Positions 43,640-63,070 of a stretch of 64,000 nt of DNA are shown piece after piece; the stretch's first letter is position 1; every line of letters starts with the position of its first letter. A program made the translations under genes and the position numbers. This DNA comes from a bacterium (GTDB lineage: Bacteria > Vulcanimicrobiota > Vulcanimicrobiia > Vulcanimicrobiales > Vulcanimicrobiaceae): NCBI GenBank assembly GCA_028869385.1, contig JAGWSR010000061.1, positions 3,526-67,525 of the forward strand, in the 5' to 3' direction. Under the pieces are notes generated by a model. The model ran no database searches, was not told the origin of the DNA, and saw only the letters and a list, made by a program, of their open reading frames with translations.

Positions 43640-43646
43640 GCCATAC

Positions 43647-45360: not shown

Positions 45361-45410
45361 TCGGGATGGGGCTCCCGAATAACCGCCGCCTCCGCGGCTG
45401 ATGGCTCCTG
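45361..45410 (+). promoter_or_regulatory. Fluoride riboswitch (crcB motif) RS1
   Basis: UCGGGAUGGGGCUCCCGAAUAACCGCCGCCUCCGCGGCUGAUGGCUCCUG. P1 is UCGGG/CCCGA. The pseudoknot pairs GGGGCU with GGCUCC. The conserved AACCGCC and GGCUGAUGGCUCCU blocks are present. It is followed by DUF190-crcB. Confidence 0.85.
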
Positions 45411-45441
45411 TCTATTGCATCGCTACAGACGGGAGTTTATA

Positions 45442-45783
45442 TTGTCGGAACGCGTACGCGGCACGCTCTTGCGGATCTTCGTAGACGAGCGCGAGGAGTT
45501 CGAGGGCAAGACACTTTACGCCGCCATCGTCGACATGCTGAAGAGCGACGGATTCGCCGGCGCGACGGTGCTCATGGGGCTCGAAGGTTTCGGCCCCAAA
45601 GGGATCCTTCACTCGTCGCGCGCGGTCGAGCATATGGATCATCTTCCGATTCTCATTGAAGTCATTGATGACGAAGAGAAGGTGGCGAGCGTCATACCCA
45701 GGCTCAAGGAGATGATCCCTGAAGGCCTCATCACGTTAGAGCGCCTCGACTATATGAGGCTGAGCGCTCCGAAGCATGATTGA
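45442..45783 (+). CDS. DUF190 (PII-like, COG1993) protein, crcB-associated
   Basis: ORF 45415..45783. The start is re-set to TTG 45442 (GGGAG 6 nt upstream). Sequence: LLRIFVDEREEFEGKTLYAAIVDMLKSDGFAGATVLMGLEGFG......LPILIEVID. It is a paralog of 47372..47722. Confidence 0.75.
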   Translation: MSERVRGTLLRIFVDEREEFEGKTLYAAIVDMLKSDGFAGATVLMGLEGFGPKGILHSSRAVEHMDHLPILIEVIDDEEKVASVIPRLKEMIPEGLITLERLDYMRLSAPKHD

Positions 45784-46165
45784 TTGGCGACAAACCATCG
45801 CCGTCGCCATCGGCGGTTCGTTCGGCTGTGTCTGCCGCTACATCGTCGGCCAGCTGTTCATCCAAAGGTTCGGGCCCGGGTTCCCCTACGGAACACTCTT
45901 CATCAACGTTACGGGCTCGTTCTTCATCGGCGTTATCGCACAATTGGCTTTGACGAACGCATTCGGCATTACACCACTGGTTCGCGTTTTTTTGATGACT
46001 GGAATAATTGGAGGCTACACGACTTTTTCGACGTTCGCGTTAGAGAACGTCAATCTCCTGAGCGACAGTTATTCATTGCCCGCCATCTATCTCAGTGCAT
46101 CCGTGATTCTCGGGCTCGGCGCTGCAGCACTCGGAAGAGTCGTGGGAGGTCTCCTCGTCCGCTAG
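45776..46165 (+). CDS. crcB: Fluoride ion channel CrcB/FluC
   Basis: 129 aa with four TM helices. ..GGSFGCVCRY..GTLFINVTGSFFIG..IGGYTTFSTFALE. It overlaps the DUF190 stop by 8 nt. Confidence 0.9.
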   Translation: MIDWRQTIAVAIGGSFGCVCRYIVGQLFIQRFGPGFPYGTLFINVTGSFFIGVIAQLALTNAFGITPLVRVFLMTGIIGGYTTFSTFALENVNLLSDSYSLPAIYLSASVILGLGAAALGRVVGGLLVR

Positions 46166-46704
46166 ATCGAGTGAAAGCGCTCGTGCGATTCCGTGAGCAC
46201 ACGTTTTGCGGCTGCGGCATCGCGCCATGATCCGATCTTGGTAGTTTTTCCTTCCAGCGCCTTATAGATCTCGAAGAAGTTCGAGATCTTCCTTAGCAGA
46301 TGCGGATAGAGGTCCGTGTAGCTATGGACCTCCTCGAAGATCGGCTCGCCGACCGGTACGGCGATGATCTTTTCATCTTCCTTTCCGCTATCGATCATCT
46401 CGAGCATTCCGACAGGCCTTGCTGCAATGAGGCATCCCGAAAACGTCGGCTCGACGACGAGCACTAGCACGTCTAAAGGGTCTCCATCGTGTGCGAGCGT
46501 CTGTGGCGCGAATCCGTAGTCGCCGGGATAGTACATCGCCGAATGCAATGCCCGGTCGAGGTGAAAGACGTCGTTCTTCTTGTCATATTCATATTTGTTC
46601 CGAGAGCCGGCCGGGATTTCGACGACGACGTTGATTTCGTCCGGTGGATTCTTGCCAAGCGGGAGATGAAGATACTTCGTTGCGGGCTTCTCTGCGATAT
46701 CCAT
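46162..46704 (-). CDS. ppa: Family I inorganic pyrophosphatase
   Basis: Inner ATG 46704 of ORF 46162..46839. ..VVVEIPAGSRNKYEYDK....LDRALHSAMYYPGDYGF.PQTL..DGDPLDVLVL..GMLEMIDSGKEDEKIIAV. Confidence 0.9.
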   Translation of the reverse strand: MDIAEKPATKYLHLPLGKNPPDEINVVVEIPAGSRNKYEYDKKNDVFHLDRALHSAMYYPGDYGFAPQTLAHDGDPLDVLVLVVEPTFSGCLIAARPVGMLEMIDSGKEDEKIIAVPVGEPIFEEVHSYTDLYPHLLRKISNFFEIYKALEGKTTKIGSWRDAAAAKRVLTESHERFHSI

Positions 46705-47138
46705 TATCGGATGATGGGCTCCCTGACTAGATTGATATGGAGACATTGGACAGACGAAAGACGCGCTTGTCCGGAAGCGAAACTGCTTAACACTTCCGGC
46801 GCAAGCGGTTCGACCCGAGCGACGGTGCCTGCTCGGCACTCGGGTAGAGCGCGACGCAACGCAGCCACCTTAGCGAAGCGCGCACTTCGAAAGACGTCCG
46901 CGCGGGGTATGGGGCTTTGACGGTTTATGCAAGTCGGGACTGACATGCCCTCTCGACTCTCTCCGTCAAATCCCCGCGCGAACGTTCTCACCCGACGACC
47001 GTATCTGCGATCGTCGGATCTGTTGGGCGGCGTGCTCGCGCCGCAGGCATGGCGAGATGCAACAAAAACATCGCCCAGGCGCGCGGTGTGCGCGGACCTC
47101 GGCAACGATATATGAGGGAAACGGATACAATGCGACAC
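46704..47138 (-). CDS. Riboswitch-proximal 144-codon ORF of unknown function, translationally coupled to ppa (may be non-coding leader)
   Basis: GTG 47138 lies 9 nt after a GGGAG that is sequestered by the riboswitch platform hairpin. Its stop overlaps the ppa ATG (TAATG). The protein sequence is Arg-rich with no recognisable domain. Confidence 0.3.
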   Translation of the reverse strand: MSHCIRFPHISLPRSAHTARLGDVFVASRHACGASTPPNRSDDRRYGRRVRTFARGFDGESREGMSVPTCINRQSPIPRADVFRSARFAKVAALRRALPECRAGTVARVEPLAPEVLSSFASGQARLSSVQCLHINLVREPIIR

Positions 47139-47173
47139 GCAGCGGGACTCCCGTACTCAAAGACTCTGGTTGA

Positions 47174-47219
47174 GTAGGAGCCATCAGCCCGTTACAGGCG
47201 GTAAGCGAGCCCCATCGCT
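47174..47219 (-). promoter_or_regulatory. Fluoride riboswitch (crcB motif) RS2
   Basis: Minus-strand RNA AGCGAUGGGGCUCGCUUACCGCCUGUAACGGGCUGAUGGCUCCUAC. It lies about 470 nt upstream of ppa. Confidence 0.8.
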
Positions 47220-47371
47220 GCGTTATGCGGGTGGCTTCTCGCGGGTGCGATACGTCCCCTCTCGCCGCGGCTCGCGGTTGCTGCACCAAGCAGGGCTGAT
47301 GATGACATCGCCACTGCGCGCGGGTATGATGAAGGTGCCTGCGAACCCGATAAAGATCCCGAGGTACACGT

Positions 47372-47722
47372 ATGGAAGGATTCAAGCAAGGCCAATTGCT
47401 CCGCGTGTTCGTCGACGAGCGCGACCTGCATGGTATGCAACCGATGTACACCGCCATCGTGGAGCTTCTTCGAAAGAAGCACATCGCCGGAGCCACGGTC
47501 TTTCGAGGCATCGAGGGCTATGGCCAACACGATCAGATCCATGTCGGGAAGATCTTCTCTTGGGCTCCGAATCTGCCGATCCTCATCGAGGTCGTCGAGG
47601 ACAAGGAAAAGATCGACAGCGTCCTCCCGGACATCGAGAAGATGGTTACCGAAGGGTTCGTAACGATAGAGGCAGCCGAATACTTCCGCATCAGCAAGTC
47701 GAAGTTGCAACCGCACGCGTAG
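47372..47722 (+). CDS. DUF190 (PII-like, COG1993) protein, second copy
   Basis: LLRVFVDERDLHGMQPMYTAIVELLRKKHIAGATVFRGIEGYG.....LPILIEVVED. Confidence 0.75.
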   Translation: MEGFKQGQLLRVFVDERDLHGMQPMYTAIVELLRKKHIAGATVFRGIEGYGQHDQIHVGKIFSWAPNLPILIEVVEDKEKIDSVLPDIEKMVTEGFVTIEAAEYFRISKSKLQPHA

Positions 47723-48358
47723 ATGGGGCCTCCCCGCGAGGTCGCCGCGTTCTGTGACTTCAACGGAACGATCGTCGACCGTGACATGTTGGACTACCTT
47801 GCCTCGACGACGGATAAGCGGACGGAGAGCGCTCCACTTCCGAACGAACGTGGGCACCGAGCCGACATCGCGCGCCGTGCCAAGGCTCTCACGCTTGACC
47901 GCGCCGATGCCGAGCGTCGCATCGAGGACGGCATCCATTTCGATGAGTCGTTTGTGCCGTTCATCGCCGCGTGCGAAGAGGTCGGCATCGAGCTGGTCGT
48001 GCTCACGTCTGGAATCCAGAGTCTCGTCGAGCGCTACCTGCTGCGACGAGGCATACGACTACCCATAATTGGCAACGAGGCCAACATGAATCGTAGCGGA
48101 TGGGTGGTCAAATTTCGTGACGAGAGCGTAGCAGGCATCGATAAGCGCCGTTACGTCGAGCGCGCTATAGAAGCCGGAAAGAAGACGATCGTGATCGGCG
48201 ACGACCGGTCGGACTTCGAAGCGGCCTTGGTCGCTTCTAGCATATTCGCTAAAGCGGGAAGCGAGTTGAAGCGATTTCTCGACGTGCGCGATTTGCCGTA
48301 TCATCCGTTCAGCAGTTTCGCGGAGATCCTCGAACGCTGGCCGCCAAAGACTTGGTGA
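47723..48358 (+). CDS. HAD-IB family phosphatase (MtnX/PSP-like)
   Basis: FCDFNGTIV (DxxGT nucleophile motif). ..VLTSG... ..IGDDRSDFEAA. The ATG immediately follows the DUF190 stop. Confidence 0.65.
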   Translation: MGPPREVAAFCDFNGTIVDRDMLDYLASTTDKRTESAPLPNERGHRADIARRAKALTLDRADAERRIEDGIHFDESFVPFIAACEEVGIELVVLTSGIQSLVERYLLRRGIRLPIIGNEANMNRSGWVVKFRDESVAGIDKRRYVERAIEAGKKTIVIGDDRSDFEAALVASSIFAKAGSELKRFLDVRDLPYHPFSSFAEILERWPPKTW

Positions 48359-48401
48359 CCGAAGGGTAGGGCCGCGTGAAGGGCTAAGAGACAGCCTGAC
48401 A

Positions 48402-48453
48402 CGGGGATGGGGCTCCCCGCGAACCGCCGACTCTGTCGGCTGATGGCTCCTGA
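48402..48453 (+). promoter_or_regulatory. Fluoride riboswitch (crcB motif) RS3
   Basis: CGGGGAUGGGGCUCCCCGCGAACCGCCGACUCUGUCGGCUGAUGGCUCCUGA. It is followed by an anti-SD hairpin (CUCCUGA/UCAGGAG) and ATG 48481. Confidence 0.85.
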
Positions 48454-48480
48454 TTGTTCTCGTCAACGTCAGGAGTAGCC

Positions 48481-49131
48481 ATGCCCTTCGAAGCGACGCG
48501 TCTAGAGACGCTGTTCGCGGAACTCCGCTCCACCGAATACGACGCGCGCAAGCGGCTGCTTGTCGGATTCGCCGAAGATACTGCGAAGATTGAGCGCTTT
48601 TTCGAGCGCCCCATACATAACGCGCAGCAAGAGGCGGAAGATGCCTTGGCGAGTATGGGGTCCATGCTCGAGCCGGAACTCGCAAAGAACCTCCGCCGCG
48701 AGGCATTCCATCGCATCGGCGTCACGTGTGTCAAGGCCGTGCTCGCCAACATTGCACTTCGCCTCCGCGCGCGCTTCAGGATCTACGCACGCGAGATCGC
48801 GGGCGCGGAGACGCGGATAGAGAGCGTCTTGGCATCGATGCGTCTGCCGAGCGCTCGACATTACATCCCGCGAATGTTCCCGATCCAACGTTTGCATCTT
48901 GAACCCGGCAACATCCCCGAACCGCCGGACTGTGCATCCGATGTGGGTGACTGGCTTAAGGCGTTACACGCATCCGCACGCGATCAGATCGAGCGATGTC
49001 TCGATGCCGCCGTCGCTCGCGTGCTCTCGAGCGGAACGGACCGCATGGGCGTCGTCAAGACGAGAATCGATCTCGCGCTCGTCTCGACGTCGCAGAACCG
49101 CCCGACGCGAGGCCGAGCCGAAACGCGATGA
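48481..49131 (+). CDS. Hypothetical helical protein, first gene of the RS3 operon
   Basis: Inner ATG of ORF 48454..49131 with AGGAG 6 nt upstream. No motif recognised. Its stop overlaps the enolase-paralog ATG (ATGA). Confidence 0.5.
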   Translation: MPFEATRLETLFAELRSTEYDARKRLLVGFAEDTAKIERFFERPIHNAQQEAEDALASMGSMLEPELAKNLRREAFHRIGVTCVKAVLANIALRLRARFRIYAREIAGAETRIESVLASMRLPSARHYIPRMFPIQRLHLEPGNIPEPPDCASDVGDWLKALHASARDQIERCLDAAVARVLSSGTDRMGVVKTRIDLALVSTSQNRPTRGRAETR

Positions 49132-50372
49132 AGCCTACGATTGCATTGATAGACGCGCTACAGATCCTCGATTCGCGCGGCTCCCCGACCATCCGCGTCT
49201 TCACGCAGCTCTCTGACGGCTCCGCCGGCATCGCGAGTGCGCCATCCGGGAAGTCGACGGGCAAAGCCGAGAAGCTGGAGCTTCGCGACCGCGGAGGCGC
49301 CTTTTCGGGACGCGGTGTCCTGAATGCCGTGGAAAACGTACGCGGACTCGTCGGTCGCTACTTTTACGGCCGCGACGCGAGCGATCCCGCGGAGATCGAC
49401 CGTGCGCTCGTCGAGCTCGACGGCACGGCGGACCGTTCGAACCTCGGCGCCAACGCGATGGTCGCCGTTTCGATGGCTATTTGGCGCGCCGTTGCGCAAA
49501 GCCGTAGCCAGCCGCTCTGGAAGACGATAGCCCAGGACTGGGATCACAATCTTCCGGTCCCTCTTTTCAACGTCGTCAACGGCGGCGCGCACGCGTCAAA
49601 CGGGCTGCCTTTGCAAGAGTTCATGCTCGTTCCGCACGGCCTGCCCACGACGAGTGAAAGAATCCGATGCGGCGCCGAGGTCTACGCCCAGCTTCGTTCA
49701 GGCTTTGCCGAGGCCGGCATGTCCACAGGCGTCGGTGACGAGGGCGGCTTCATTTTCACCGGCAGACGCGTCGCCGACGCCATCGAGCTGATTATTCGCG
49801 CGATCGAGCGGGGTGGCTACGATGTCGGCGGCGAGGTCTCTCTCGCGATCGACGCTGCGGCGAACGGATTCCGCAACGACGACGGCACCTACAGTCCCGA
49901 ACGCGGCATGAAGCTTACCAGCGAAGAACTCTGCGAGTGGTGGTGCGCGCTCGTCGATAGCGCGCCGGTCGTCATGCTTGAGGATCCATTCCACGAAGAC
50001 GACGCCCGCGGCTGGGGAATGCTCACGCGACGTCTCCAGAGTCACATCACCCTCGTTGGCGACGACATCTTCGTTACCGATCAGGCACGCATACATCGTG
50101 CCGTTCTGGATGGCATCGCGAACGCCGCGCTGCTCAAACCAAACCAGATCGGCACCGTCAGTGAGACTATCGACGCCTGGGCCGAGGCTCGCCGAGGCGG
50201 ATACAAGACTGTCGTCTCGCACCGTTCGGGGGAGACGGCGGACACCTTCATCAGCGACCTCGCTGTCGGAATCGGTAGCGAATACTTGAAATCTGGCGCG
50301 CCGGCGCGCAGCGAGCGCGTGGAGAAATACAATCGGCTACTCGAGATCGAGCGTGAGATGGTGGCGCGGTGA
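49128..50372 (+). CDS. Divergent enolase paralog (riboswitch-controlled)
   Basis: Inner ATG of ORF 48996..50372. ILDSRGSPTI..APSGKSTGKAEKLELRD..GVGDEGGF..LAIDAAANGF..LEDPFHEDD..LVGDDIFVT..LLKPNQIGTVSET..SHRSGETADTFISDLAV..LKSGAPARSERVEKYN. All catalytic and Mg ligand positions are recognisable, but the active-site loop is altered. Confidence 0.85.
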   Translation: MKPTIALIDALQILDSRGSPTIRVFTQLSDGSAGIASAPSGKSTGKAEKLELRDRGGAFSGRGVLNAVENVRGLVGRYFYGRDASDPAEIDRALVELDGTADRSNLGANAMVAVSMAIWRAVAQSRSQPLWKTIAQDWDHNLPVPLFNVVNGGAHASNGLPLQEFMLVPHGLPTTSERIRCGAEVYAQLRSGFAEAGMSTGVGDEGGFIFTGRRVADAIELIIRAIERGGYDVGGEVSLAIDAAANGFRNDDGTYSPERGMKLTSEELCEWWCALVDSAPVVMLEDPFHEDDARGWGMLTRRLQSHITLVGDDIFVTDQARIHRAVLDGIANAALLKPNQIGTVSETIDAWAEARRGGYKTVVSHRSGETADTFISDLAVGIGSEYLKSGAPARSERVEKYNRLLEIEREMVAR

Positions 50373-52027
50373 TCGCAGTACGTATGGGCGATAGTAAACT
50401 GTTCGTGGGACTCGCGACGCTTGCGCGGCGCTATGGAGACGATGTGCTGCGCGGAGACATCGACTTCATCATCGATCAGTCATTGCATGATACGGCCTCG
50501 GTCGCCGTGATCGGGCAGTTCAAACGCGGCAAGAGCACCCTGTTGAATGCGCTGATCGGCGAGGACATTCTCCCAACAGGTCGGCTTCCGCTGACGGGCG
50601 TTACCACGCGTATTCTGCACGGCGACCGTGGAGCAGTCGTGCACTTCGCGGGCGGCCGAACGGAACGGGTTCCCCTGGACGATCTCAAGCTCTACGTCAC
50701 CGAAGAGCACAACCCGCGGAATCTCCGAGGCGTGACGCACGTCGACGTGACGCTGCCGCTCCCGATGCTTCTACATATCGTGTTCATCGATACTCCGGGC
50801 ATCGGGTCGACGTTCGCCCACAACACGCAGACCGCGTATGAAGCAAGCGAACGCATCGATCTCGCTCTTTTCATCACCGGCCCCGAGCCGCCGATAACGG
50901 GCGATGAGATCGCGTTCCTACGGCAGGCCCGAGAGCGCGCCGATCGCGTCATCGTCATCGTCGCTAAGATCGACCTGGTGCCGGGAAGCGAGGCGGAGAT
51001 ACTCGACTTCACACACCATGCGATCAAGGAAGCTGTGGGAACGGCCCTTCCCATCTATCCGCTAGACGCAACGCGCCCGGACGCGCGCATTGCAGCGCTG
51101 CGCGAAGTCATCACCGCCAGCATAGCGGAGGGCGAGGGAAATCTCGCCCGGCGTTCGCTCGCACGTCGCGCCCTCCGTGCGGCGGCGACCATTCGCCGCA
51201 GCATCGCGCTACAGCGAGCGGCGGCGCTCCTTCCAGCGTCGGAGCGCGAGCAGGCCCGCGTACGCTTCGGAGAGATCGCTGACGAGATCGCGGAGCGGGG
51301 CGCCGACCTCATTCGCGCGATCGAACAATTCCCAACAGAAGAGCTCGTATCCGTTGATGCGTTGCTCGAGACGCTTGCCCAAGAGGCCGAGACGGCCGTT
51401 TCGAGTGAGATTGAGCGCTTCGTTACGCTCGACGCCGCTGTCGGCGAGCGCGCACTGTATGAACGCATCGCTGAGTGCGAAACGCAGTGGTCAGCGCACG
51501 TGTCGTCGGCATTGGAGAAGCGGATCGTTAGGCGTCACTCTGCCACGCTACGCCTGGTCACCGAACTCGAACAGCGCTTCGCAGAAGCGGGAAGCGCTGC
51601 GCTGGGATTACGGTGGAATCCGGAGGACGAAGTCGATCGCGCCGAATTCGGAGTGCGGGAGGCCGCGACGCGTATGAACGGCCCGGTCCCGACGACGGGT
51701 TTGGAACTCTTTACCGGAGGGTTGATCGCGACGCTACCCGGATCGCTACGGGCGCATGTGCTACGTAAGCGCTATACGACGCTGATCGCCGAACTTCTCG
51801 ACCGCTCGAAGGGCCGCGTCCGATCGGCCGCTGTCCGATATCTCATGGAATGGCGTCTAGCGAACGTCGGTTTCGTTCGCGAGCGTCTTCTTTCGGCGCG
51901 CCGCATCGTCGAAGACGCCTTCGATAGCGCGGCGGAGACGGGCGACGAAACGGATCTCACGGCGGCTCTGGAGCGGATGAACGGCGACGAACGGATTCTC
52001 GATGCGGTTGTGGCGGCGTTCCCGTAG
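50369..52027 (+). CDS. Dynamin-like GTPase (bacterial DLP) 1
   Basis: GTG overlaps the enolase-paralog stop (GTGA). G1 is VIGQFKRGKSTLLNAL. G2 is LPLTGVTT. G3 is FIDTPGIGS. G4-like is VAKIDL. The C-terminal half is long and helical. Confidence 0.75.
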   Translation: MIAVRMGDSKLFVGLATLARRYGDDVLRGDIDFIIDQSLHDTASVAVIGQFKRGKSTLLNALIGEDILPTGRLPLTGVTTRILHGDRGAVVHFAGGRTERVPLDDLKLYVTEEHNPRNLRGVTHVDVTLPLPMLLHIVFIDTPGIGSTFAHNTQTAYEASERIDLALFITGPEPPITGDEIAFLRQARERADRVIVIVAKIDLVPGSEAEILDFTHHAIKEAVGTALPIYPLDATRPDARIAALREVITASIAEGEGNLARRSLARRALRAAATIRRSIALQRAAALLPASEREQARVRFGEIADEIAERGADLIRAIEQFPTEELVSVDALLETLAQEAETAVSSEIERFVTLDAAVGERALYERIAECETQWSAHVSSALEKRIVRRHSATLRLVTELEQRFAEAGSAALGLRWNPEDEVDRAEFGVREAATRMNGPVPTTGLELFTGGLIATLPGSLRAHVLRKRYTTLIAELLDRSKGRVRSAAVRYLMEWRLANVGFVRERLLSARRIVEDAFDSAAETGDETDLTAALERMNGDERILDAVVAAFP

Positions 52028-52733
52028 TCGTCTCTCCGAAGCGCTCGACGCGGTGTGCGGAAAGGACCGCGCGCGGCGCGATGTCCTCGCGCGAAGCGTC
52101 GGCTCTCCCTTCATCGAGAGCGACGTCGCGGCGGCGCTGCTCGGCGAAGATCTCTGGTATCCTCCGCTCGTCGAATTTAGGAAGTACCTGGAAACAGCGG
52201 TCGAGCGACCGCATCTCTGGGACTTCCCGTTTAGCGAGTCAGGACGTTGGCCGAGCTCCACGTGGCGGGCGCTCTCGCTGCACACGCGCATCGCCCGAGC
52301 GCGCATTGCCTCACCGGCTCACGAGTCAGATTTCGTTTTTGCCGCTCTTGCATTCGGAATGCGTGAGCGCGAACTTCGAACCGCATTTAAGGAACTGCTT
52401 GCGATCGGACTCTGCCGTGAGATCTGTCGTGGGATCTATCGCGTGTATGCTATCGCTCCTTTGGCGGCGCTCGATCATGATCTTCATCTTGTCAGAGTCA
52501 TTGCCCATTGGCTGGAGATGCTCGCGCAGGCCGATCACGTTGCTGAAGATCGGGCGCCTACTGGCTATGAGGTTCACGGTTACGTCGAAGCCTGCACCTG
52601 CTGCAAGAAGCGGTGGGGTATCCGTCCACGTGCGCCGGATTGGGTACCGCCGTTTCACCCGGGCTGCCGCTGTTTCGCGCAGCCGCGATTTGCGAGTCGA
52701 ATACCACCAATCAACATGGAGGAATCTCGGTGA
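52002..52733 (+). CDS. Hypothetical protein with C-terminal Phage_Mu_F/SPP1 gp7-like motif
   Basis: ORF 52002..52733. The C-terminal ..WVPPFHPGCRCFAQP resembles the PP.H.NCRC signature I recall from MuF-like head-morphogenesis and polymorphic-toxin domains. It overlaps DLP1 by 26 nt. Confidence 0.5.
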   Translation: MRLWRRSRSRLSEALDAVCGKDRARRDVLARSVGSPFIESDVAAALLGEDLWYPPLVEFRKYLETAVERPHLWDFPFSESGRWPSSTWRALSLHTRIARARIASPAHESDFVFAALAFGMRERELRTAFKELLAIGLCREICRGIYRVYAIAPLAALDHDLHLVRVIAHWLEMLAQADHVAEDRAPTGYEVHGYVEACTCCKKRWGIRPRAPDWVPPFHPGCRCFAQPRFASRIPPINMEESR

Positions 52734-52888
52734 CCGTCCCAGGCAAGGAACATCCAGACTACTGGCTTTACGAGCAGCTGCAGACGATTCAGATGCTGCT
52801 TCTCGCGATGGCCCTCGAACAGGAAGGCCAAGAACAAGAATCGTCGGATCTTCTCGACGAAGCGCGTAAGAGGATAATCGGAGCATGA
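52730..52888 (+). CDS. Small acidic ORF (52 aa)
   Basis: GTG overlaps the upstream stop (GTGA) and its stop overlaps the downstream ATG (ATGA). VTVPGKEHPDYWLYEQLQTIQMLLLAMALEQEGQEQESSDLLDEARKRIIGA. Confidence 0.3.
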   Translation: MTVPGKEHPDYWLYEQLQTIQMLLLAMALEQEGQEQESSDLLDEARKRIIGA

Positions 52889-56494: not shown

Positions 56495-57997
56495 GAACTG
56501 CGCCGCTTCGCCGAAGACCCGATAATAGATGTCCTCGCCGTAGCTCGTTGGGAGCGGTTCCTCTTCCGCCAGCCTAAAGGAACGCTCCCCGTCGTCGCTT
56601 CGCGGTGCGCGCAGAAACAGCGTAGTGTCCTTGCGTTCCACCCAGAGGCGATGCGCGAATTCGTAGAGATGGGTGACGAAGGCGACCTCGACGCCAGAAT
56701 CCACGAGTGCTTCCGCAATCTGGCGTGCGATCTCCGACCCTTCGCGGTCATTGGTCGCAGCGAAGGACTCATTGAAAAGGACGAATGCGTTAGGGGACAG
56801 CTCAGCGACCATGTCGTTCATGCGCTTCAACTCCTCGTCGAACTTCCCGCTCTCCATGCTCGCATCTTCCTCGCGCTTGTAGTGCGTAAACACCCCCGAC
56901 GAAAGAGAGGCGCGGTAGGAGTTCGCGGGAACGAACATTCCGCATTCCATCATGAGCTGCGCAATGCCGAGGCTTCGGAGGAACGTCGACTTCCCTCCGC
57001 GATTCGCTCCGGTTATCACGATCATCGATTTGCCGTCAGCGGCGGCATCGTTTCCGACGATACGTTCTTTTGCAAGCAAAGAAAGACACGCATCATAGAG
57101 GTTGGCGCCATCTCGGATCCTCGCGCCGGCCGGGGATATGGCGGGGAAACACGTCGGCTCGCCCTTTGCCGTAAGCTGTTCCTGTAGGTTGACGCAGCCG
57201 AGATAGAAGGCGAGTTCCGAACGCAACGTCGTGAAGAACGCCAAGATATGCTCAGTCGACTGCCCGAGCGCGTCGGCGACGAGATTGATTCCGCGGTCTC
57301 CGAGCTCGGATAGCGCACGCATCCCGCTCTCGTCGCGAGGAGGGATATGATAGGTCAGCCCATCCTCCGCCGGCGGCAGTATGCGCTCAATCCAGTTCTT
57401 GTTCGGCCGCACGAACTCGCGCAGGACGTAATCCGTGCCGTGGTTTCCCTTTCCGAGCCGCACGCTCATCAGGATCCCATCCGGGAACTCCACTGTTTTC
57501 AGCAACCCGTCGACCTTCGCGAGATAGTCGTCTTCGAGTTCGGTCTCTAGCATCGAGAAGAATCGCCTAAATCCGTCGGACGCAAACCAGTCCGCATGCG
57601 CCTCGGCAATCAGGCGCATCCGCTTCAGGATTGCAAGGAACATCGGTAAGATATCGCGCCCGCGCCGTAAGATCGTCGAGGGGTATCGCGATGTCAAGCC
57701 CCAAAACGACCGCCGCTCTTCCGTGATGGCCTCCTCGGCGAGGGCATATATCTCGCGGACGATCTCCCGATGGGCAAGACAATCGCGCAGCACGGCTTGA
57801 CGATAAAGGAGTGCGTCGACGTCGCGGAGCCCGCCCAGTACCACCTTCGGCGCGACCGTCGGGATCACGCGGTCCTCGCCGGCCATGGCGTCGAAGAGCG
57901 TTTGGAGTCCGAGGTCCTGGATAAGGTCGTCCGCGTTCTTCGGCAGCTTCGTGTCCCAGTCGAAGTCCCGCTCGCGATGAAGCAGAAACGCCTTCAC
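56483..57997 (-). CDS. MutS-related ABC-type ATPase (domain III/V only, no mismatch-binding or Smr domain) B
   Basis: GTG start overlaps the upstream stop (TAGTG). ..MIVITGANRGGKSTFLRSLG..SGKFDEELKRMN..LFNESFAATNDREG..FVTHLYEF. Confidence 0.75.
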   Translation of the reverse strand: MKAFLLHRERDFDWDTKLPKNADDLIQDLGLQTLFDAMAGEDRVIPTVAPKVVLGGLRDVDALLYRQAVLRDCLAHREIVREIYALAEEAITEERRSFWGLTSRYPSTILRRGRDILPMFLAILKRMRLIAEAHADWFASDGFRRFFSMLETELEDDYLAKVDGLLKTVEFPDGILMSVRLGKGNHGTDYVLREFVRPNKNWIERILPPAEDGLTYHIPPRDESGMRALSELGDRGINLVADALGQSTEHILAFFTTLRSELAFYLGCVNLQEQLTAKGEPTCFPAISPAGARIRDGANLYDACLSLLAKERIVGNDAAADGKSMIVITGANRGGKSTFLRSLGIAQLMMECGMFVPANSYRASLSSGVFTHYKREEDASMESGKFDEELKRMNDMVAELSPNAFVLFNESFAATNDREGSEIARQIAEALVDSGVEVAFVTHLYEFAHRLWVERKDTTLFLRAPRSDDGERSFRLAEEEPLPTSYGEDIYYRVFGEAAQFLKS

Positions 57998-59541
57998 TAC
58001 CGCTCCACTTTCTTGAAACGATCGTGCAGTCGATCGTAAGTAAGGCCGTAGCGCTCGGCGAGAGAGAGCGCGTAGGCCAGACCATCAGCGGGTCTTCGTT
58101 CCAATCGGAACGTCCGTTTGCCCGGATCGACCGCATCCACAACGCTCACCATGCTAACGGTCTTCTCGCTCATGGAGGCCAGTTCGTCGATAAACGTCAC
58201 GCAGACGCAGAGCGCGTCGAGTGCGAGTATCCGTTCCATGATGGCCCGGGCGAGCACGCTTGCGTCGCGAGCGGTCGTCGATGCGAATATTTCGTTGAGG
58301 ATGATGATGCTGTTGGAAGTTGCGTGTTCCAGAATATCGTGAATCCGCAGAATGTCGTCTTCGAGCTTGCCGCGCCCCGAAGCCGGATCTTCCTGCCGTT
58401 CGAAGTGAGTGAAGAGTTCGTCGAAGAGAAACGTGGTTGCTTCGCTTCCTGCTACGCGGCATCCGAGCGCCGCGAGATAGTGGAGTTGGCCGAACGTTCG
58501 CGCCAGCGTCGTTTTGCCACCCTGATTGGGGCCAGAGATGACGAGGACGCGCTCAAGTCCGCTTAGCTCGAAATCGTTGGTGACGACGGGCCCATTGGTA
58601 GCTACGATCCGGTGCGCTAGCGCCATGTCGTACGTCTCCCGCGCGCGTACGGTTTTACTGGCGGGGTCGACCCGGGGATAGCACGTTCGGAGTTCCGCTG
58701 CCTCGAAAATCTTCGCATAGTCCGAGGCGGCGAGATAGAATTGGATCTCGCGATCGAACCGCGCGACCGTTTCGTCGATGAAGTCCGCGTGACGTTCGGC
58801 GAAGCGATCGAGCTCGGTGAAAAGCTCGGGATAGAGCTGAGCCACGAACTCGAGGACCTTTTCCTCGATGTGATTCAATGCGCCGCGGTCGTAGAACGTC
58901 ACGAGGTAGCTCTTCGTAGCGCCCTGCCGAAACCTCGAAAAGGTCTCGAGCACGGCTTCGACCAGATCGCGCTCCTCGCCGCAGGGCCGAACGCTCACTC
59001 GCTCTCCGCCTACGAGCACGTCGTACGTAACTCCCGAGAGCCCCATCCGTAACGAGGCCACGTCGTCCGCCAGCCGGAGGAAGGTTTCAGACGTCCGATA
59101 TTGTTCGAGGAAGTCGCGGAATGCAACGAGCCCATGTGACCGAACCGACGGACGGCGAAGGCCTTCGTTTAGGTTCCCGATGGCCGCGCAATACGTTTCG
59201 GCGGCATCGAGACGCCATCTCTCCCGTTCATATCGGTAGCGCAGCTTTGATTCGGTTTCCAACGCCGCCCGCACCGCGCGCATCGCGTCTGCAAAGGTGT
59301 CCACGCACTTGCGCGCCTCGTCGTTCTCTAGGTCGCGGGATATCTCGTGGCGATAACCGATGGCATCAACGTCCCCGAGTGGTACGCGAAACAGCGGTTT
59401 GAGATCGTACGCTTCGCGTCCCGCAAACATCGCATCGGCGATCTGGTCGAGATAGAGGTCCGCGAAGAACGGCGGATCCACCGCCCGCTCCGTAGTCCTT
59501 TGGTCGCCTCGAGCCGGGAAGAGAAGGCTATTGAATGTCAT
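57997..59541 (-). CDS. MutS-related ABC-type ATPase (domain III/V only) A
   Basis: Inner ATG 59541 of ORF 57997..59622, overlapping the DLP2 stop (ATGA). ..VLVISGPNQGGKTTLARTFG..RGKLEDDILRIH..ILNEIFASTTARDA..VTFIDELA. Confidence 0.75.
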   Translation of the reverse strand: MTFNSLLFPARGDQRTTERAVDPPFFADLYLDQIADAMFAGREAYDLKPLFRVPLGDVDAIGYRHEISRDLENDEARKCVDTFADAMRAVRAALETESKLRYRYERERWRLDAAETYCAAIGNLNEGLRRPSVRSHGLVAFRDFLEQYRTSETFLRLADDVASLRMGLSGVTYDVLVGGERVSVRPCGEERDLVEAVLETFSRFRQGATKSYLVTFYDRGALNHIEEKVLEFVAQLYPELFTELDRFAERHADFIDETVARFDREIQFYLAASDYAKIFEAAELRTCYPRVDPASKTVRARETYDMALAHRIVATNGPVVTNDFELSGLERVLVISGPNQGGKTTLARTFGQLHYLAALGCRVAGSEATTFLFDELFTHFERQEDPASGRGKLEDDILRIHDILEHATSNSIIILNEIFASTTARDASVLARAIMERILALDALCVCVTFIDELASMSEKTVSMVSVVDAVDPGKRTFRLERRPADGLAYALSLAERYGLTYDRLHDRFKKVER

Positions 59542-61130
59542 CGCTCGCGCGGTATCCCGTTCGCGCCTCTGCTGCCTGCGACGAGCTCGACCCCGCGGCG
59601 ATCGGCGTCGCGTTCTTCCCAATCCATCAGGTAACGCCGCGTTGCATCGAACTTTAGGACGTATCGTCGCATGTCATCGGCAGTCGTCGTCATCGCCTCC
59701 GCCTGCCGCTTCGTTGCCCGCCTTACGAGCTCGGTATCGCGCAGTGTTTTGGCAACAGCGCGAAAGTGTCCGAGGCAGTACGAGCGGCTCCCGTCTTCGG
59801 TGTCCTCGCGTATCGCACGCGCAGCCTCTCCAACGGCGGCGAGCTCGGCGTCGGAACGGACGCGGCATACTGGGCATCGCCCTCCTTCGTCGGCAATCTG
59901 GCTTATAGCGTCGATGGATCCGCCGACGGCGAGAGCGTCCGCGGCGCGCTCCAACCGCTCGGCCGCGCGTATTAGCGAAACGGAGAGTGCAACACAGGCA
60001 CCTCGTGGGCCGGCGAATGCGTGATATTGCCAAGCGTGGACGCCGCAGAACCCGCCTTCCGCGAGCTCGCTACGTTCGCGCTCAGACTTAACCAGTGCGT
60101 ATTGGTAGCTGCTGAGAAAGGCTACGACGGCGGCGCTCTCACGCTCGCAGACGGCGCATCCGAAGAAGCGCGTTTCGCGAGCACTGTCAAGCGTCGGCAG
60201 CCGTTTGGCTTCAATCGGGCCGCCGCGAATTGCCTGCGCCAGAGCGCGAAGGTTCGCCCGTTCAGAATCGCAGTCGGGAAGATCGTCGACTACGTCTGCG
60301 ATTCTGTCGCACATAACACGAAGAAAATCGGCCTGTTTGCGCTCGACAAGGAAGCGCATCAGGTGCGCGTAGAGACCGTCGATGCCGAAATGTTGCCCCT
60401 CGCGCGCGCAAACGGAGAAAACTTCCGGCCCGTCGATACCGATGCTCCGCAAGACATCGAGCACGTAGTCGCGGATCTTTGCTCGCTCCCCGGGATCCAC
60501 GAGATCGGCCTTATTTACGATGAAGAAGAGCCGTCGACCGTATGAACGCACGAGCTGGACGATGCGCATCTCGTCCTCCGAAAGCGGGCTTTCGAAACTC
60601 GTAACGAGTAATACCGCGTCGGCCTCCGGTAGAAATGCATGCGTCGTTGCGGTGTTCTCGACCACGGGGGAACCGACGCCCGGTGTATCGATGAAGTGGA
60701 ATCCCCTGCGCAACAGATCTGCTGGCAGTTGGATGCGGGCGGTGGCAATGCCAAGAACGTTTCCTGGGTTCCCGCGCTCGGTAACGTACTCGTCAAGTCG
60801 ATCGAGCGACACGCGCTCGGGAATCGAGCGCTCCTGATATTCGATTGTTGCGATCTCCTCGCTGCCGTATGAGACCGTGGTAATCACCGATGTGAGCGGC
60901 AGGATGTCCACCGGAAGTCGCGTGGTCGAAAGCAATGCGTTCATAAGCGATGTCTTCCCACGATTGAAGCGGCCGGCCACGACAAGGTTGAAGCGGTCTT
61001 CGGCGAGACGAGCAAAGATATCGCCGACGGCGGTGTCCCCGGAGTCTCCTTCGCCTCGATGCTTAAGCGCGGCCGAGCGCACGATCTCCGCGAGCGCGAA
61101 CTTCACGTGCTCGTATTCGCGTAGGTCCAT
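59538..61130 (-). CDS. Dynamin-like GTPase 2 with Cys/His-rich C-terminal half
   Basis: G1 is VAGRFNRGKTSLMNAL. G2 is LPLTSVIT. G3 is FIDTPGVGS. G4 is VNKADL. The C-terminal region has CAVCE..(31)..CGVH and CPVCR..(29)..CLGH modules. Confidence 0.75.
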   Translation of the reverse strand: MDLREYEHVKFALAEIVRSAALKHRGEGDSGDTAVGDIFARLAEDRFNLVVAGRFNRGKTSLMNALLSTTRLPVDILPLTSVITTVSYGSEEIATIEYQERSIPERVSLDRLDEYVTERGNPGNVLGIATARIQLPADLLRRGFHFIDTPGVGSPVVENTATTHAFLPEADAVLLVTSFESPLSEDEMRIVQLVRSYGRRLFFIVNKADLVDPGERAKIRDYVLDVLRSIGIDGPEVFSVCAREGQHFGIDGLYAHLMRFLVERKQADFLRVMCDRIADVVDDLPDCDSERANLRALAQAIRGGPIEAKRLPTLDSARETRFFGCAVCERESAAVVAFLSSYQYALVKSERERSELAEGGFCGVHAWQYHAFAGPRGACVALSVSLIRAAERLERAADALAVGGSIDAISQIADEGGRCPVCRVRSDAELAAVGEAARAIREDTEDGSRSYCLGHFRAVAKTLRDTELVRRATKRQAEAMTTTADDMRRYVLKFDATRRYLMDWEERDADRRGVELVAGSRGANGIPRER

Positions 61131-61135
61131 TGCAG

Positions 61136-61573
61136 TTATGCCTCGTCTTCCGAGAGGTCCCGGCGAATCGGTTGGGTATCGAAGTATTCATCCTCTACAG
61201 TCTCATAGGCCCGGAGGCGCTCCTTGAGGGTGCCAATCCGCACCTGGAGTTGACGTGCACTCTGCATCGTCAATTCCAGCATGCCGTATGCGCCCGCGTT
61301 TCTCATCCGCTCGGTCTTCAAATCCCGCATGCACTCGTAGAGCTTGAAGTGCTCGACCGAATACTGCTGCTCCAGTGCATAGAGCATCGATCCGCGCTCG
61401 GCGTGCTCTCGCTGGAGTGCATGGAGTCGTTCCAGCGTCTCTTCGTCGGCGGGACGCATAGCTTGCTTGCAATCGCTGGTTCGAACGGGCGCGGGCCGGC
61501 GTCGCACAAACGAGTATGCGGCGAGGACAATCGTCGTCAACACGTTTACGCCAGCGTGGAAGGTTTTGGCCAT
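61136..61573 (-). CDS. Hypothetical N-terminally anchored coiled-coil protein
   Basis: Inner ATG 61573 of ORF 61136..62197. TM helix VNVLTTIVLAAYSFV, then a heptad-like helical region. Its stop lies 5 nt before the DLP2 ATG. Confidence 0.4.
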   Translation of the reverse strand: MAKTFHAGVNVLTTIVLAAYSFVRRRPAPVRTSDCKQAMRPADEETLERLHALQREHAERGSMLYALEQQYSVEHFKLYECMRDLKTERMRNAGAYGMLELTMQSARQLQVRIGTLKERLRAYETVEDEYFDTQPIRRDLSEDEA

Positions 61574-62274
61574 GGCAACCTGTTCTTGGGGCGATCGCTC
61601 CCATGCACGATCTCGCGCACGCACGCTTCCCGCGCACCCGCGCGAAGGCTCGACCATCGAAGCTTTCTTACGACTGCGCCGATCCCATACGGGGCCGCGC
61701 CGAAGGTGATGCGGCCTCCCTCGAGGAGCGCGTATGCCGCGACGCCCTGCTTTGCGTTCTGACCGACGCTGCCCGGGTTCACGATGACCTTGCCGCCGTA
61801 GCGCCAAACGCCTTGCCGATGCGTATGCGCCGTGACGATCACGTCCGCGCGCGGAAATGCGCGAGTGATACGGTGCAACTCGTCCTCTGTCGGCATGAGG
61901 TAGCGATTGTAATCGCCGGGATAGGCGTGAACCAACGCGATGCGCCTTCCCTCCACCTCGATCTCGAGTTCCGGCGGCAGCGTCGAGAGCCAGGCGAGAA
62001 GGCCTGGCTTGAGCACGCGCCTCGTCCATTCGCGACTCTCGGTCCCGGCTTCGACGAGATGCTCCGGCAGAAGATGAGGCACGCCATTCGCAACTGCATC
62101 GTCCTCTTCGCCGCGAATGCAGGCCGACGGCCGCGTCATGAGCCATTCCACGCATTCGTTTGGCTCGACGCCGAATGTGACGAGGTCGCCGGCGCAAAGA
62201 ATCGCGTCAGCTTCGGGAAGCACCGACAGCGCGTCAAAGTTCGCGTGAATGTCGGCGATGATGAGTGTTCGCAT
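61546..62274 (-). CDS. Calcineurin-like metallophosphoesterase (YfcE/MJ0936-like)
   Basis: Inner ATG 62274 of ORF 61546..62310 (AGGAG 8 nt upstream). MRTLIIADIHAN.. AILCAGDLV.. RIALVHAYPG.. VIVTAHTHR.. VNPGSVG. Confidence 0.75.
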   Translation of the reverse strand: MRTLIIADIHANFDALSVLPEADAILCAGDLVTFGVEPNECVEWLMTRPSACIRGEEDDAVANGVPHLLPEHLVEAGTESREWTRRVLKPGLLAWLSTLPPELEIEVEGRRIALVHAYPGDYNRYLMPTEDELHRITRAFPRADVIVTAHTHRQGVWRYGGKVIVNPGSVGQNAKQGVAAYALLEGGRITFGAAPYGIGAVVRKLRWSSLRAGAREACVREIVHGSDRPKNRLPWPKPSTLA

Positions 62275-62299
62275 GATGCTTTCTCCTACTCGTATCGAA

Positions 62300-62350
62300 G
62301 TAGGAGCCATCAGTCGCGCGACGCGACATCCTCGGCGGGCCCCATCGCCT
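62300..62350 (-). promoter_or_regulatory. Fluoride riboswitch (crcB motif) RS4
   Basis: Minus-strand RNA AGGCGAUGGGGCCCGCCGAGGAUGUCGCGUCGCGCGACUGAUGGCUCCUAC. P2 is GUCGCG/CGCGAC in place of the usual ACCGCC..GGC arm. It is followed by an 8-bp anti-SD hairpin (CUCCUACU/AGUAGGAG). Confidence 0.75.
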
Positions 62351-62356
62351 CATGAA

Positions 62357-62830
62357 CTAGTAGACCTTTTCCGGCGACGCGGCGCTGATGTACTGTCCCC
62401 GCTCGTGCGTCGCGAAGAGCGCGGCGTGCGGCATATGGTGTCGGATGTCGGGGTGGTCGAGCGGCAGCCATTCCAACGTTTGGGCGCCGTCGCCGGGCAT
62501 CGGCTGATGGCGCTCCTCCGACGTGATTTCGGCATAGAAGCATATTTCGAGCACAGGCGTCGACCAGCGGTCTTCTCGGCGCTCGGCGACGAACGCGATC
62601 TCCGTCGTCTCGATTTCGTAACCCGTTTCTTCGAGCGCCTCACGAACGGCGGCGCAGTCGAGTGATTCTCCGAGGCGAGGCGCACCGCCAGGTAGATTCA
62701 CGTGGGCGACAGCAAGTCGAGATTCGCGAACGACGAGTATCTCGTCGCCCGGCCGCAGGATTGCAGCGGAAACTCTTACGCGGTACGGATCGGCGTTGCT
62801 CACAAAAATAGCCCCCATTCGATGCTTCAC
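62357..62830 (-). CDS. NUDIX hydrolase
   Basis: Nudix box GGAPRLGESLDCAAVREALEETG (GX5EX7REUXEEXGU). GTG 62830 or ATG 62818 could be the start. Confidence 0.8.
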   Translation of the reverse strand: MKHRMGAIFVSNADPYRVRVSAAILRPGDEILVVRESRLAVAHVNLPGGAPRLGESLDCAAVREALEETGYEIETTEIAFVAERREDRWSTPVLEICFYAEITSEERHQPMPGDGAQTLEWLPLDHPDIRHHMPHAALFATHERGQYISAASPEKVY

Positions 62831-62838
62831 GAGACCGA

Positions 62839-62890
62839 ATAGGAGCCATCAGCCGTCAAGACGGCGGTTCGAGGCGGTGCCCCATCGCCT
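62839..62890 (-). promoter_or_regulatory. Fluoride riboswitch (crcB motif) RS5
   Basis: Minus-strand RNA AGGCGAUGGGGCACCGCCUCGAACCGCCGUCUUGACGGCUGAUGGCUCCUAU. It lies immediately upstream of the NUDIX gene. Confidence 0.85.
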
Positions 62891-62976
62891 ATTAAGAGTT
62901 CCGTTCGTAGGTACCCAAGAGTCTCCCTTTCCCAAGAAGGACGCCGCACCGCGTTTGAGAACGGGGAGAGCGAAGA

Positions 62977-63037
62977 GGGTGGTGGAGTCCGCCCGGATGC
63001 GGACGCATCCGAACCGCCGTAAGGCCAATGACTCCTG
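62977..63037 (+). promoter_or_regulatory. Variant fluoride riboswitch RS6 with an extra inserted hairpin
   Basis: GGGUGGUGGAGUCCGCCC-[GGAUGCGGACGCAUCC]-GAACCGCCGUAAGGCCAAUGACUCCUG. The pseudoknot pairs GGAGUC with GACUCC. The 3' block GCCAAUGACUCCU resembles the GCUAAUGACUCCUAC form I recall from Bacillus crcB RNAs. It is followed by a 10-bp anti-SD hairpin. Confidence 0.6.
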
Positions 63038-63070
63038 ACAATGACCGCGTCTTGTTGTCAGGAGACCCTG

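Follow-up and report, generated by a model that had tools for sequence, protein, structure and literature searches.

Locus and its six fluoride aptamers

The 64,000-nt stretch analysed here, termed the window as a whole, is part of contig JAGWSR010000061.1 (assembly GCA_028869385.1), which derives from a metagenome-assembled genome (MAG) of an uncultured soil bacterium of the Vulcanimicrobiaceae. Its right part contains six elements of the crcB motif, i.e., the fluoride riboswitch class (Rfam RF01734), which are named RS1 to RS6. These switches gate six gene units over 17.7 kb, or ~26 kb if the hydrogenase-type operon that continues beyond the window edge is counted (Table 1). The units are a DUF190-crcB pair (RS1), an inorganic pyrophosphatase gene (ppa) preceded by the doubtful open reading frame (ORF) ORF144 (RS2), an eight-gene operon including an enolase gene (RS3), an operon encoding a metallophosphoesterase, a dynamin-like GTPase and two MutS-like ATPases (RS4), a NUDIX hydrolase gene (RS5) and a HycD/NuoH-like gene (RS6). 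A module of mobility and maintenance genes lies to the left of the cluster.

Table 1. Features of the window and of the adjoining right end of the element. Bit scores are for RF01734 and for R2, the family-specific covariance model described in the text; anti-SD denotes pairing of the aptamer tail with the Shine-Dalgarno (SD) region, with the predicted hairpin energy and z score.
Feature	Position	Strand	Remarks
tRNA-Glu	30510-30584
attL	30562-30587	+	26 nt, 3' end of tRNA-Glu
Arm repeat CGTCTAACAATCGTCTAACAGA	30641-30662		22 nt; second copy just inside the right end
Mobility/maintenance module	30678-45282
Tyrosine integrase	30678-31904	-	Pfam; beside tRNA-Glu
TraG/TraD-like coupling protein	34975-37041	-	Pfam
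ParA-like protein	37541-38539	-	Pfam
Relaxase-helicase (MobA/VirD2 + AAA_30)	39250-42441	+	Pfam
AbiEi-like (DUF6088)/AbiEii pair	43617-45282	+	Pfam; PADLOC AbiEii 1e-91
RS1 aptamer	45353-45417	+	RF01734 44.9 bits, R2 66.1 bits; anti-SD: tail GGCUCCUGUCU with AGACGGGAG, hairpin to ~45436, -16.9 kcal/mol, z -3.7
DUF190a	45442-45783	+	RS1; TTG start after SD GGGAG; Pfam DUF190 1e-30
crcB/Fluc fluoride channel	45776-46165	+	RS1; Pfam CRCB 9e-27
Inorganic pyrophosphatase (ppa)	46162-46704	-	RS2; Pfam Pyrophosphatase 3e-57
ORF144, doubtful gene or leader ORF	46704-47138	-	Directly behind RS2
RS2 aptamer	47168-47228	-	RF01734 40.6 bits, R2 53.5 bits; anti-SD: tail/SD hairpin, -14.4 kcal/mol, z -0.5
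DUF190b	47372-47722	+	Pfam DUF190 1e-33
HAD-family hydrolase	47723-48358	+	Pfam HAD 3e-11
RS3 aptamer	48394-48459	+	RF01734 49.5 bits, R2 67.9 bits; 36 nt past the HAD stop codon; anti-SD: tail CUCCUGA with UCAGGAG, -16 kcal/mol, z -2.9
Eight-gene operon	48481-56494	+	RS3; Pfam, NCBIfam, gene calls of identical contig L001
unk216	48481-49131	+	First gene behind RS3; orphan
MFS transporter	53967-55196	+	In RS3 operon
Metallophosphoesterase/dynamin-like/MutS-like operon	56483-62274	-	RS4
MutS-like ATPase, 504 aa	56483-57997	-	RS4 operon; Pfam MutS_V
MutS-like ATPase, 541 aa	57997-59622	-	RS4 operon; Pfam MutS_V
Dynamin-like GTPase B	59538-61130	-	RS4 operon; Pfam Dynamin_N
Coiled-coil ORF	~61136-61567	-	RS4 operon
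Metallophosphoesterase	61546-62274	-	First gene behind RS4; NCBIfam YfcE-type phosphodiesterase
RS4 aptamer, variant J12/P2	62294-62358	-	RF01734 31.5 bits, E 2.5e-5; R2 50.5 bits; anti-SD: tail CUCCUACU with AGUAGGAG, -15.5 kcal/mol, z -4.0
NUDIX hydrolase	62357-62803	-	RS5; Pfam NUDIX 7e-15; likely start GTG 62803 after SD GGGGG
RS5 aptamer	62833-62898	-	RF01734 50.8 bits; anti-SD: tail/SD hairpin, -23.8 kcal/mol, z -4.4
RS6 aptamer, variant	62969-63044	+	RF01734 33.5 bits, E 5.3e-6; R2 19.3 bits; anti-SD: tail CUCCUGACAA with UUGUCAGGAG, -18.3 kcal/mol, z -3.6
HycD/NuoH-like membrane subunit	63071-64000	+	RS6; TTG start; runs off the window; Pfam NADHdh 8e-31
attR	71750-71775 (extended coordinate)		26-mer identical to attL, same orientation; ~7.75 kb past the window end, on contig L083

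The gathering score of RF01734 is 34 bits. When the window was scanned with Rfam at the gathering threshold, and 44000-64000 also with an E-value threshold, RS5, RS3, RS1 and RS2 exceeded this score; RS6 falls short by 0.5 bit and RS4 is also below 34. The next match of any Rfam family in 44000-64000 has E 0.5. A second covariance model, R2, was seeded with RS1 and RS3 alone and then iterated, and was finally built from 88 related aptamers that are confident matches. R2 finds the same six elements and no others over 1-64000; with filters off, the next score in 43000-64000 is 10.5 bits, and the 7.8 kb past the window edge up to attR contain no further aptamer by R2. MAFFT alignments of the six aptamers, or of the four canonical ones, were rejected as RS2, RS5 and RS6 were misplaced. 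The initial annotation had placed six crcB-motif elements in this region and took fewer than about four above the gathering score as refuting this; the six Rfam matches coincide with its coordinates to within a few bases, and exactly four reach that score. The conserved blocks and compensatory P1 and P2 changes that it described are also visible in the six sequences.

Aptamer structure and covariation

All six elements form both helices P1 and P2. The pairings are retained with changing sequences: P1 is CGGG/CCCG, AGCG/CGCU, GGGG/CCCC, GGCG/CGCC or GGUG/CGCC, and P2 is GCCG/CGGC, GCCUG/CGGGC or GUCGCG/CGCGAC. In addition, six pseudoknot pairs between the P1 loop and the 3' tail are made in each element.

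Structural conservation was assessed in an alignment of 149 related aptamers for 15 pairs, comprising P1, P2, the six pseudoknot pairs and the equivalent of A6.U38; columns were related to the crystal numbering by our own motif alignment. In these relatives, 98.3% of the cells are paired, compared with 85.4% in shuffled alignments (none of 500 shuffles matches the observed values) and 31-56% in slid controls, and 12 of the 15 pairs change on both sides. P1 and P2 are paired in 99.7% and 96.2%, respectively, with both-sided changes in seven of eight helix pairs. The pseudoknot is paired in 99.0%, with both-sided changes in four of six pairs, and its strands co-vary as sets (GGGGC/GCUCC, GAGGC/GCCUC, GAAGC/GCUUC and GGGAC/GUCCC).

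In the Thermotoga petrophila structure 4ENC, the tertiary pairs are A6.U38 (reversed Watson-Crick) and A40.U48 (reversed Hoogsteen) (PMC11586693). The columns equivalent to A40 and U48 are invariant in all 149 relatives and in all six window elements. The A6.U38-equivalent pair is AU in 124 relatives, GC in 19 and other in four; in the window, A and U are present in RS1 to RS5, and G and C in RS6. From these sequence features, we conclude that all six represent intact aptamers of the fluoride riboswitch class.

Variant aptamers RS4 and RS6

The low score of RS6 is due to a 15-nt insertion after P1, which forms an extra hairpin in J12, and three substitutions (G for A6, C for U38 and A for G39), by which GGUGG and CCAAUG replace the consensus GAUGG and CUGAUG, respectively. 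As the G.C form of the tertiary pair is found in 19 of the 149 relatives, two of the three substitutions correspond to a known covariation. The low score of RS4 is due to its J12/P2 segment, which consists of GAGGAU followed by GUCGCG-UCG-CGCGAC in place of the consensus AACCGCC...GGC. No P1, P2, pseudoknot or tertiary pair is lost in either element.

RS4 and RS6 have positional counterparts in three related loci, L003 and L004 (Acidobacteriota MAGs) and L005. The counterparts of RS6 contain a J12 hairpin at the same place with different sequences, CGGAUGCG/CGCAUCCG, GCAAC/GUUGC and GUAGCG/CGCUAC; in terms of predicted pairing, the structure is kept while the sequence changes, a compensatory pattern. 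The counterparts of RS4 have the same non-consensus J12 at the same spot, directly after a NUDIX stop codon.

It is unlikely that the four high-scoring elements alone are functional and that RS4, RS6 or both are decaying copies or have come to respond to a different ligand or fluoride threshold. Such an explanation would fit scores below the Rfam gathering score, the loss of the AACCGCC block in RS4, and the substitutions and insertion in RS6, which scores only 19.3 bits even with the family-specific R2. However, both elements retain A40 and U48, which are invariant, as well as the complete set of P1, P2 and pseudoknot pairs, RS6 has the covarying G.C form and a hairpin conserved as structure rather than as sequence in the three counterparts, and RS4 reaches 50.5 bits with R2 at a conserved position. 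Also, the anti-SD hairpins of RS4 and RS6 are strong (z -4.0 and -3.6), and both aptamers stand ahead of classic fluoride-associated genes.

A third aptamer variant, GGCGGAGGGGC...GCCAACGGUCCCU (A6G, U7A, U38C, G39A and U41C), is seen in ~10 cases in related loci, including L042:5091-5147, L042:2067-2123, L042:4889-4945, L050:9608-9661 and L062:8065-8117. This GGAGG...CAACGG variant precedes enolase and dynamin-like genes, and is absent from the window. Rfam reports nothing at these sites at E <= 0.01.

Expression platform

The distance from the aptamer to the start codon downstream is 24-34 nt for the six, with a median of 32 nt in the family. Each of the six leaders has, 15-30 nt downstream of the 3' end of the aptamer (GGCUCCU and 3-5 more bases), a segment complementary to that end; its last bases are GGAG, GGGAG or GGGGG, 5-10 nt ahead of the start codon. 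The resulting tail/SD hairpins are predicted to have energies of -14.4 to -23.8 kcal/mol, with z scores of -2.9 to -4.4 for five of them. In the family, for which the first ORF downstream was chosen by an SD-aware rule, 92 of 124 leaders, versus 284 of 620 shuffled ones, let the tail pair with the bases immediately ahead of the start codon, an enrichment that is real but modest.

In the proposed mechanism, the aptamer 3' strand (GGCUCCU...) would, in the absence of fluoride, pair with the purine-rich SD sequence 25-35 nt downstream and thereby mask it. Binding of the Mg2+-fluoride cluster would bring this strand into the pseudoknot with the P1 loop (GAUGGGGC), leaving the SD sequence free for translation of the first cistron. 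We infer from the leader sequences that all six are fluoride-activated translational ON switches of a uniform design based on SD sequestration.

Control mainly at the level of transcription, by Rho-dependent or atypical termination or by mRNA decay, rather than at translation initiation, appears improbable. Blocked translation of a first cistron commonly leads to Rho-dependent polarity, which would favor such control, and a simple terminator scan could miss terminator types of the host. In addition, many characterised fluoride riboswitches are transcriptional (PMC2864571; PMC13273304). However, the scan found no G+C-rich hairpin with a U tract behind any of the six switches, and the 14 terminator-like sites of the region do not exceed the 15.7 expected by chance. 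In every leader, it is the SD sequence itself that competes for the pseudoknot strand, and RS3 and RS4 stand between cistrons with no space for a promoter.

As RS3 and RS4 are located between cistrons of the same strand, they probably act within polycistronic mRNAs, e.g., RS5-NUDIX-RS4-metallophosphoesterase; the first base of RS4 is the base right after the NUDIX stop codon. RS5 and RS6 point away from each other, their 5' ends being ~70 nt apart (62898-62969). Two promoters in this gap would need to overlap back to back, and no sigma-70-like match is present in 62898-62969.

Genes behind the switches

The gene assignments of the initial annotation hold for DUF190-crcB, ppa, the eight-gene operon, the metallophosphoesterase/dynamin/MutS-like operon, the NUDIX gene and the hycD-like gene, whereas ORF144 is doubtful as a gene. 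Its stop codon overlaps the ppa start codon as TAATG, and its G+C contents at the three codon positions are 0.63/0.58/0.59, compared with ~0.65/0.45/0.72 in its neighbors. ORF144 has no gene call in the identical contig L001 and no homologue in 80 related loci; at other loci, a switch directly precedes ppa. ORF144 may be a leader ORF coupled to ppa through the TAATG overlap, or a remnant of an insertion. The DUF190b-HAD pair has no riboswitch of its own by R2 with filters off, and is preceded by a promoter-like site at 47302-47330 (match 10/12).

The genes of the RS3 operon are, in order, unk216, enolase, dynamin-like GTPase A, unk243, unk52, a PF04185 phosphoesterase, the MFS transporter and a CMAS-type lipid methyltransferase. 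The enolase matches the NCBIfam eno equivalog with 461 bits. The first protein, unk216, has seven relatives among 5.8 billion proteins, and its predicted structure is a four-helix bundle (pLDDT 84). No significant relative emerged from a fold search with this model, in which stalks of dynamin-family proteins (IniA and MxA) had the highest TM-score, 0.36. A dynamin-like GTPase is encoded two genes downstream of unk216, whose likeness to such stalks is not significant. The MutS-like ATPases of the RS4 operon resemble solved MutS structures in ATPase domain V only.

The hycD-like gene noted previously is confirmed behind RS6, with the correction that it heads a group-4 [NiFe]-hydrogenase/formate-hydrogenlyase-type operon, as seen on the overlapping, 100% identical contig L083. 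It is followed by a 222-aa ORF, NuoM-like, NuoD/HycE-like, NuoB/HycG-like and NuoL-like genes and then a Usp gene. ORF144, unk243, unk52, the coiled-coil ORF and the 222-aa ORF match no family in Pfam or NCBIfam.

Almost all enzymes encoded behind the switches are Mg2+-dependent enzymes of phosphoryl transfer or nucleotide hydrolysis: enolase, pyrophosphatase, HAD, NUDIX, metallophosphoesterase, PF04185 phosphoesterase, dynamin-like GTPases and MutS-like ATPases. This set supports, without proving, a response that would mainly replace or over-supply enzymes inhibited by fluoride. The protein genes would serve to export fluoride, to replace or over-supply Mg-dependent phosphoryl-transfer enzymes that fluoride inhibits, and to maintain pH or energy homeostasis.

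Related loci

For comparison, 80 genomic loci encoding relatives of the MFS transporter of the island were analyzed; this set, being chosen via the MFS gene, is biased and indicates recurrence, not genome-wide frequency. At least one aptamer (R2, >=27 bits) is present in 44 of the 80 loci, and 10 loci contain 6-8 aptamers within 21 kb by R2. The isolate Actinoallomurus acaciae TBRC 0563 (L042) has eight aptamers in 11.3 kb by R2. By Rfam alone at E <= 0.01, five are found within 8.8 kb in L042, five in L035 and four in L010. The density that the initial annotation had regarded as unusual is therefore less exceptional than it seemed, as synteny in three genomes also indicates.

At the Rfam gathering score, only 1-4 aptamers per related locus are found, and seven dense loci have 16 aptamers by this score, compared with ~48 at >=27 bits by the family-trained model. 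The additional R2 aptamers below the gathering score have full pseudoknot covariation. The curated threshold thus under-calls G+C-rich aptamers, and the numbers published for Actinomycetota, Acidobacteriota and Chloroflexota may be underestimates.

The layout of the window is syntenic in L003, L004 and L005, with most proteins 45-73% identical; the closest syntenic relatives are the Acidobacteriota MAGs. The HycD-like protein is 85-92% identical to its counterparts (L003:17818-18774, L004:18647 and L005:8710), compared with 45-73% for neighboring island proteins. Among the MFS-linked loci, the MutS-like pair is a partner in 28 loci and directly behind a switch in 20, and HycD-like genes in 17 and 15, respectively; enolase is a partner in 12 loci, dynamin-like GTPases in 9-11 and DUF190 in eight. 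Relatives of the MFS transporter itself (55-73% identity) are found in Acidobacteriota, Actinomycetota, Chloroflexota, Alphaproteobacteria, Eremiobacterota and others, and in 39 of the 80 loci the gene follows a fluoride aptamer within 6 kb, directly so in 14. The distribution suggests horizontal spread and a putative fluoride-linked role of this transporter.

A Pfam census of the first gene after 150 aptamers in these MFS-chosen loci gives dynamin-like genes as the commonest (14), followed by NuoH/HycD-like (13), MFS (12), ABC ATPase (7), DUF6062 (6), NUDIX (5) and DUF4129 (5) genes, and by FTHFS, Na+/H+ exchanger, Usp and metallophosphoesterase genes (three each) and pyrophosphatase (2). In one riboswitch-dense related locus, a group II intron (RF02005, 170 bits) is located at L044:2005-2225 on the minus strand. 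No homologue of the integrase, relaxase or coupling protein of the window was found within 10 kb of the related clusters.

Integrative element carrying the cluster

The G+C content decreases from 0.63-0.70 on the left to 0.56-0.63, and the drop begins at ~30.6 kb, right after the genes for tRNA-Met and tRNA-Glu. The low-G+C island proposed by the initial annotation is low in relative terms only, compared with the left flank, and its border is at 30.6 kb rather than at the fluoride cluster, because all the DNA from there on belongs to an integrative element. Exact 26-nt direct repeats, one of which is the 3' end of tRNA-Glu, bound 41.2 kb of DNA. The right end is provided by contig L083, which overlaps 59385-64000 of the window at 100% identity; the exact att and arm repeats are located there at extended coordinates ~71612-71775 (L083 14-177).

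The left part of the element encodes a tyrosine integrase, a coupling protein, a ParA-like protein and a relaxase-helicase. As no VirB4-type or other mating-pore or type IV secretion gene was recognised among its unassigned ORFs, 'mobilizable' is a safer term than 'conjugative'. The fluoride cluster makes up most of the cargo of this 41.2-kb, probably mobilizable or conjugative element in tRNA-Glu and, being such cargo, would constitute a horizontally transferable fluoride-tolerance regulon.

The AbiEi/AbiEii pair, which separates RS1 from the transfer genes, is probably a module for stabilising the element or for defence, with no relation to fluoride. Integrative elements commonly carry defence genes, the AbiE pair stands directly upstream of the fluoride cluster, and the dynamin-like proteins have weak matches to LeoA/LeoBC defence models of PADLOC (E 2e-9 to 2e-14). 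An anti-phage defence island beside AbiE, made up of the dynamin-like, MutS-like, NUDIX and phosphoesterase genes and only incidentally close to fluoride switches, is nevertheless very unlikely. The PADLOC matches span only the generic GTPase domain, and the MutS-like proteins and unk216 match nothing. Moreover, of the 28 related loci with a MutS-like gene, 20 have it directly behind a fluoride riboswitch, dynamin-like genes top the count of first genes behind a switch (14 of 150), and mutS-related genes have been listed with the crcB motif since 2010 (PMC2864571).

An assembly or binning artefact joining riboswitch units of different genomes, as could be suspected for a MAG, is extremely unlikely, since 10.9, 7.1 and 4.6 kb of the window, which include five of the six switches and the unit junctions, recur at 100% identity in contigs of two independent sequencing runs, and the gene order is conserved in L003, L004 and L005. 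The independently assembled sequence also matches an NCBI MAG protein. Contig L001 was considered as a rearranged variant and rejected, as it is 100% identical to the window including the second DUF190 ORF.

Comparison with known systems

The six elements share with the RF01734 class the two stems and pseudoknot, the GAUGG and CUGAUGxCUCCU blocks, the A6.U38 and A40.U48 positions and, as predicted here, ON logic with an expression platform competing for the 3' strand of the pseudoknot. They also stand, like known members, in the 5' leaders of crcB, pyrophosphatase, enolase, NUDIX, MutS-related and formate-hydrogenlyase-type genes. The gene classes beside the crcB motif were listed by its discoverers and in a later review, with mutS-related genes included from 2010 (PMC2864571; PMC11139923), in agreement with the initial annotation, which gave several of them as already noted. 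Unlike typical members, the six are G+C-rich and under-scored by the Rfam model, and would use SD sequestration rather than the better-studied terminator platform. RS6 differs by its extra J12 hairpin and G.C tertiary form, RS4 by its non-consensus J12/P2, and two of the switches are intercistronic instead of being at the transcript start.

Island GI3 of Enterobacter cloacae FRM is horizontally acquired and under fluoride-riboswitch control, and its high fluoride resistance has been demonstrated experimentally (PMC5533749). Like GI3, the window and its extension contain crcB, enolase, pyrophosphatase and Usp genes behind fluoride aptamers on acquired DNA, here of lower G+C content and bounded by att sites. 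GI3 has one riboswitch and one six-gene operon of 4.5 kb, compared with six switches and six units over 17.7 kb in the window, which adds dynamin-like, MutS-like, MFS, NUDIX, phosphoesterase and hydrogenase modules as well as defined att sites, an integrase and a relaxase. GI3 supplies extra copies of fluoride-inhibited enzymes, and the enolase and ppa of the window may likewise be second copies.

Streptomyces cattleya and Methylobacterium DM4, for which 'extensive riboswitch-based regulation' in response to fluoride is described (PMC11139923), are similar in having several fluoride riboswitches per genome and a multi-gene response. Similar, too, are dense soil loci of A. acaciae (L042), Solirubrobacterales and Streptosporangiaceae MAGs (L010, L035 and L062) and Acidobacteriota MAGs (L003 and L004), which have an MFS gene (55-73% identity), the MutS-like pair, dynamin-like GTPases, HycD-like operons, enolase and DUF190, with 4-8 aptamers per 11-21 kb. 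In contrast to the window, several of these have the GGAGG...CAACGG variant, and gene order differs outside the Acidobacteriota block. In the searchable literature, outside which key subscription papers lie, no description was found of many fluoride switches in one locus or on an integrative element.

Interpretation and implications

Taken together, the locus probably comprises six functional fluoride riboswitches of the translational ON type on a 41.2-kb tRNA-Glu integrative element, and would represent a transferable fluoride-tolerance regulon. Several points weigh against this interpretation. RS4 and RS6 are below the curated Rfam score, and three normally conserved positions are changed in RS6. 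The anti-SD hairpin of RS2 is no stabler than shuffled sequence (z -0.5) and the ORF following it looks non-coding, and the family SD-pairing test is only moderately discriminating because its shuffled control is high (46%). For the element, no type IV secretion genes for self-transfer were recognised, and attR is seen outside the window, on an overlapping metagenome contig that ends 13 nt past the repeat.

The sensors and most of the gene classes are already known, and the locus is a further instance of a known regulatory class. What is added here is the mobile-element setting, the uniform translational design with intercistronic switches, two conserved structural variants and dense islands as a wider pattern, which in soil bacteria is apparently unreported. 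The switchless second DUF190-HAD pair, the uniform translational design and the mobile-element setting had been overlooked in the initial annotation.

More tentatively, and with chances somewhat short of even, the window might be one case of an undescribed, phylum-crossing class of riboswitch-dense 'fluoride islands' of soil, here with ~26 kb of cargo on a 41-kb tRNA-Glu element. Such islands would be built around the MFS transporter, paired MutS-like ATPases, dynamin-like GTPases and group-4 hydrogenase-type operons. In that case, the window would contain a complete transferable regulon, and its six switches, two of them structural variants, could be tuned to different fluoride thresholds and gate single cistrons of polycistronic mRNAs.

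The fluoride riboswitch class was reportedly identified in 2012, and the functions of many genes that follow it are said to have been open since. These orphan genes encode MutS-related ATPases, dynamin-like GTPases, NUDIX and HAD hydrolases and formate-hydrogenlyase-type complexes. At the present locus, a single delimited and clonable piece of DNA carries most of them, each with a sensor of its own, and A. acaciae TBRC 0563 is a culturable organism with an even denser cluster. Since many G+C-rich fluoride aptamers escape the curated Rfam threshold, their published numbers in soil phyla are probably underestimates. The locus also suggests that an integrative element can convey fluoride tolerance as a package of several operons.

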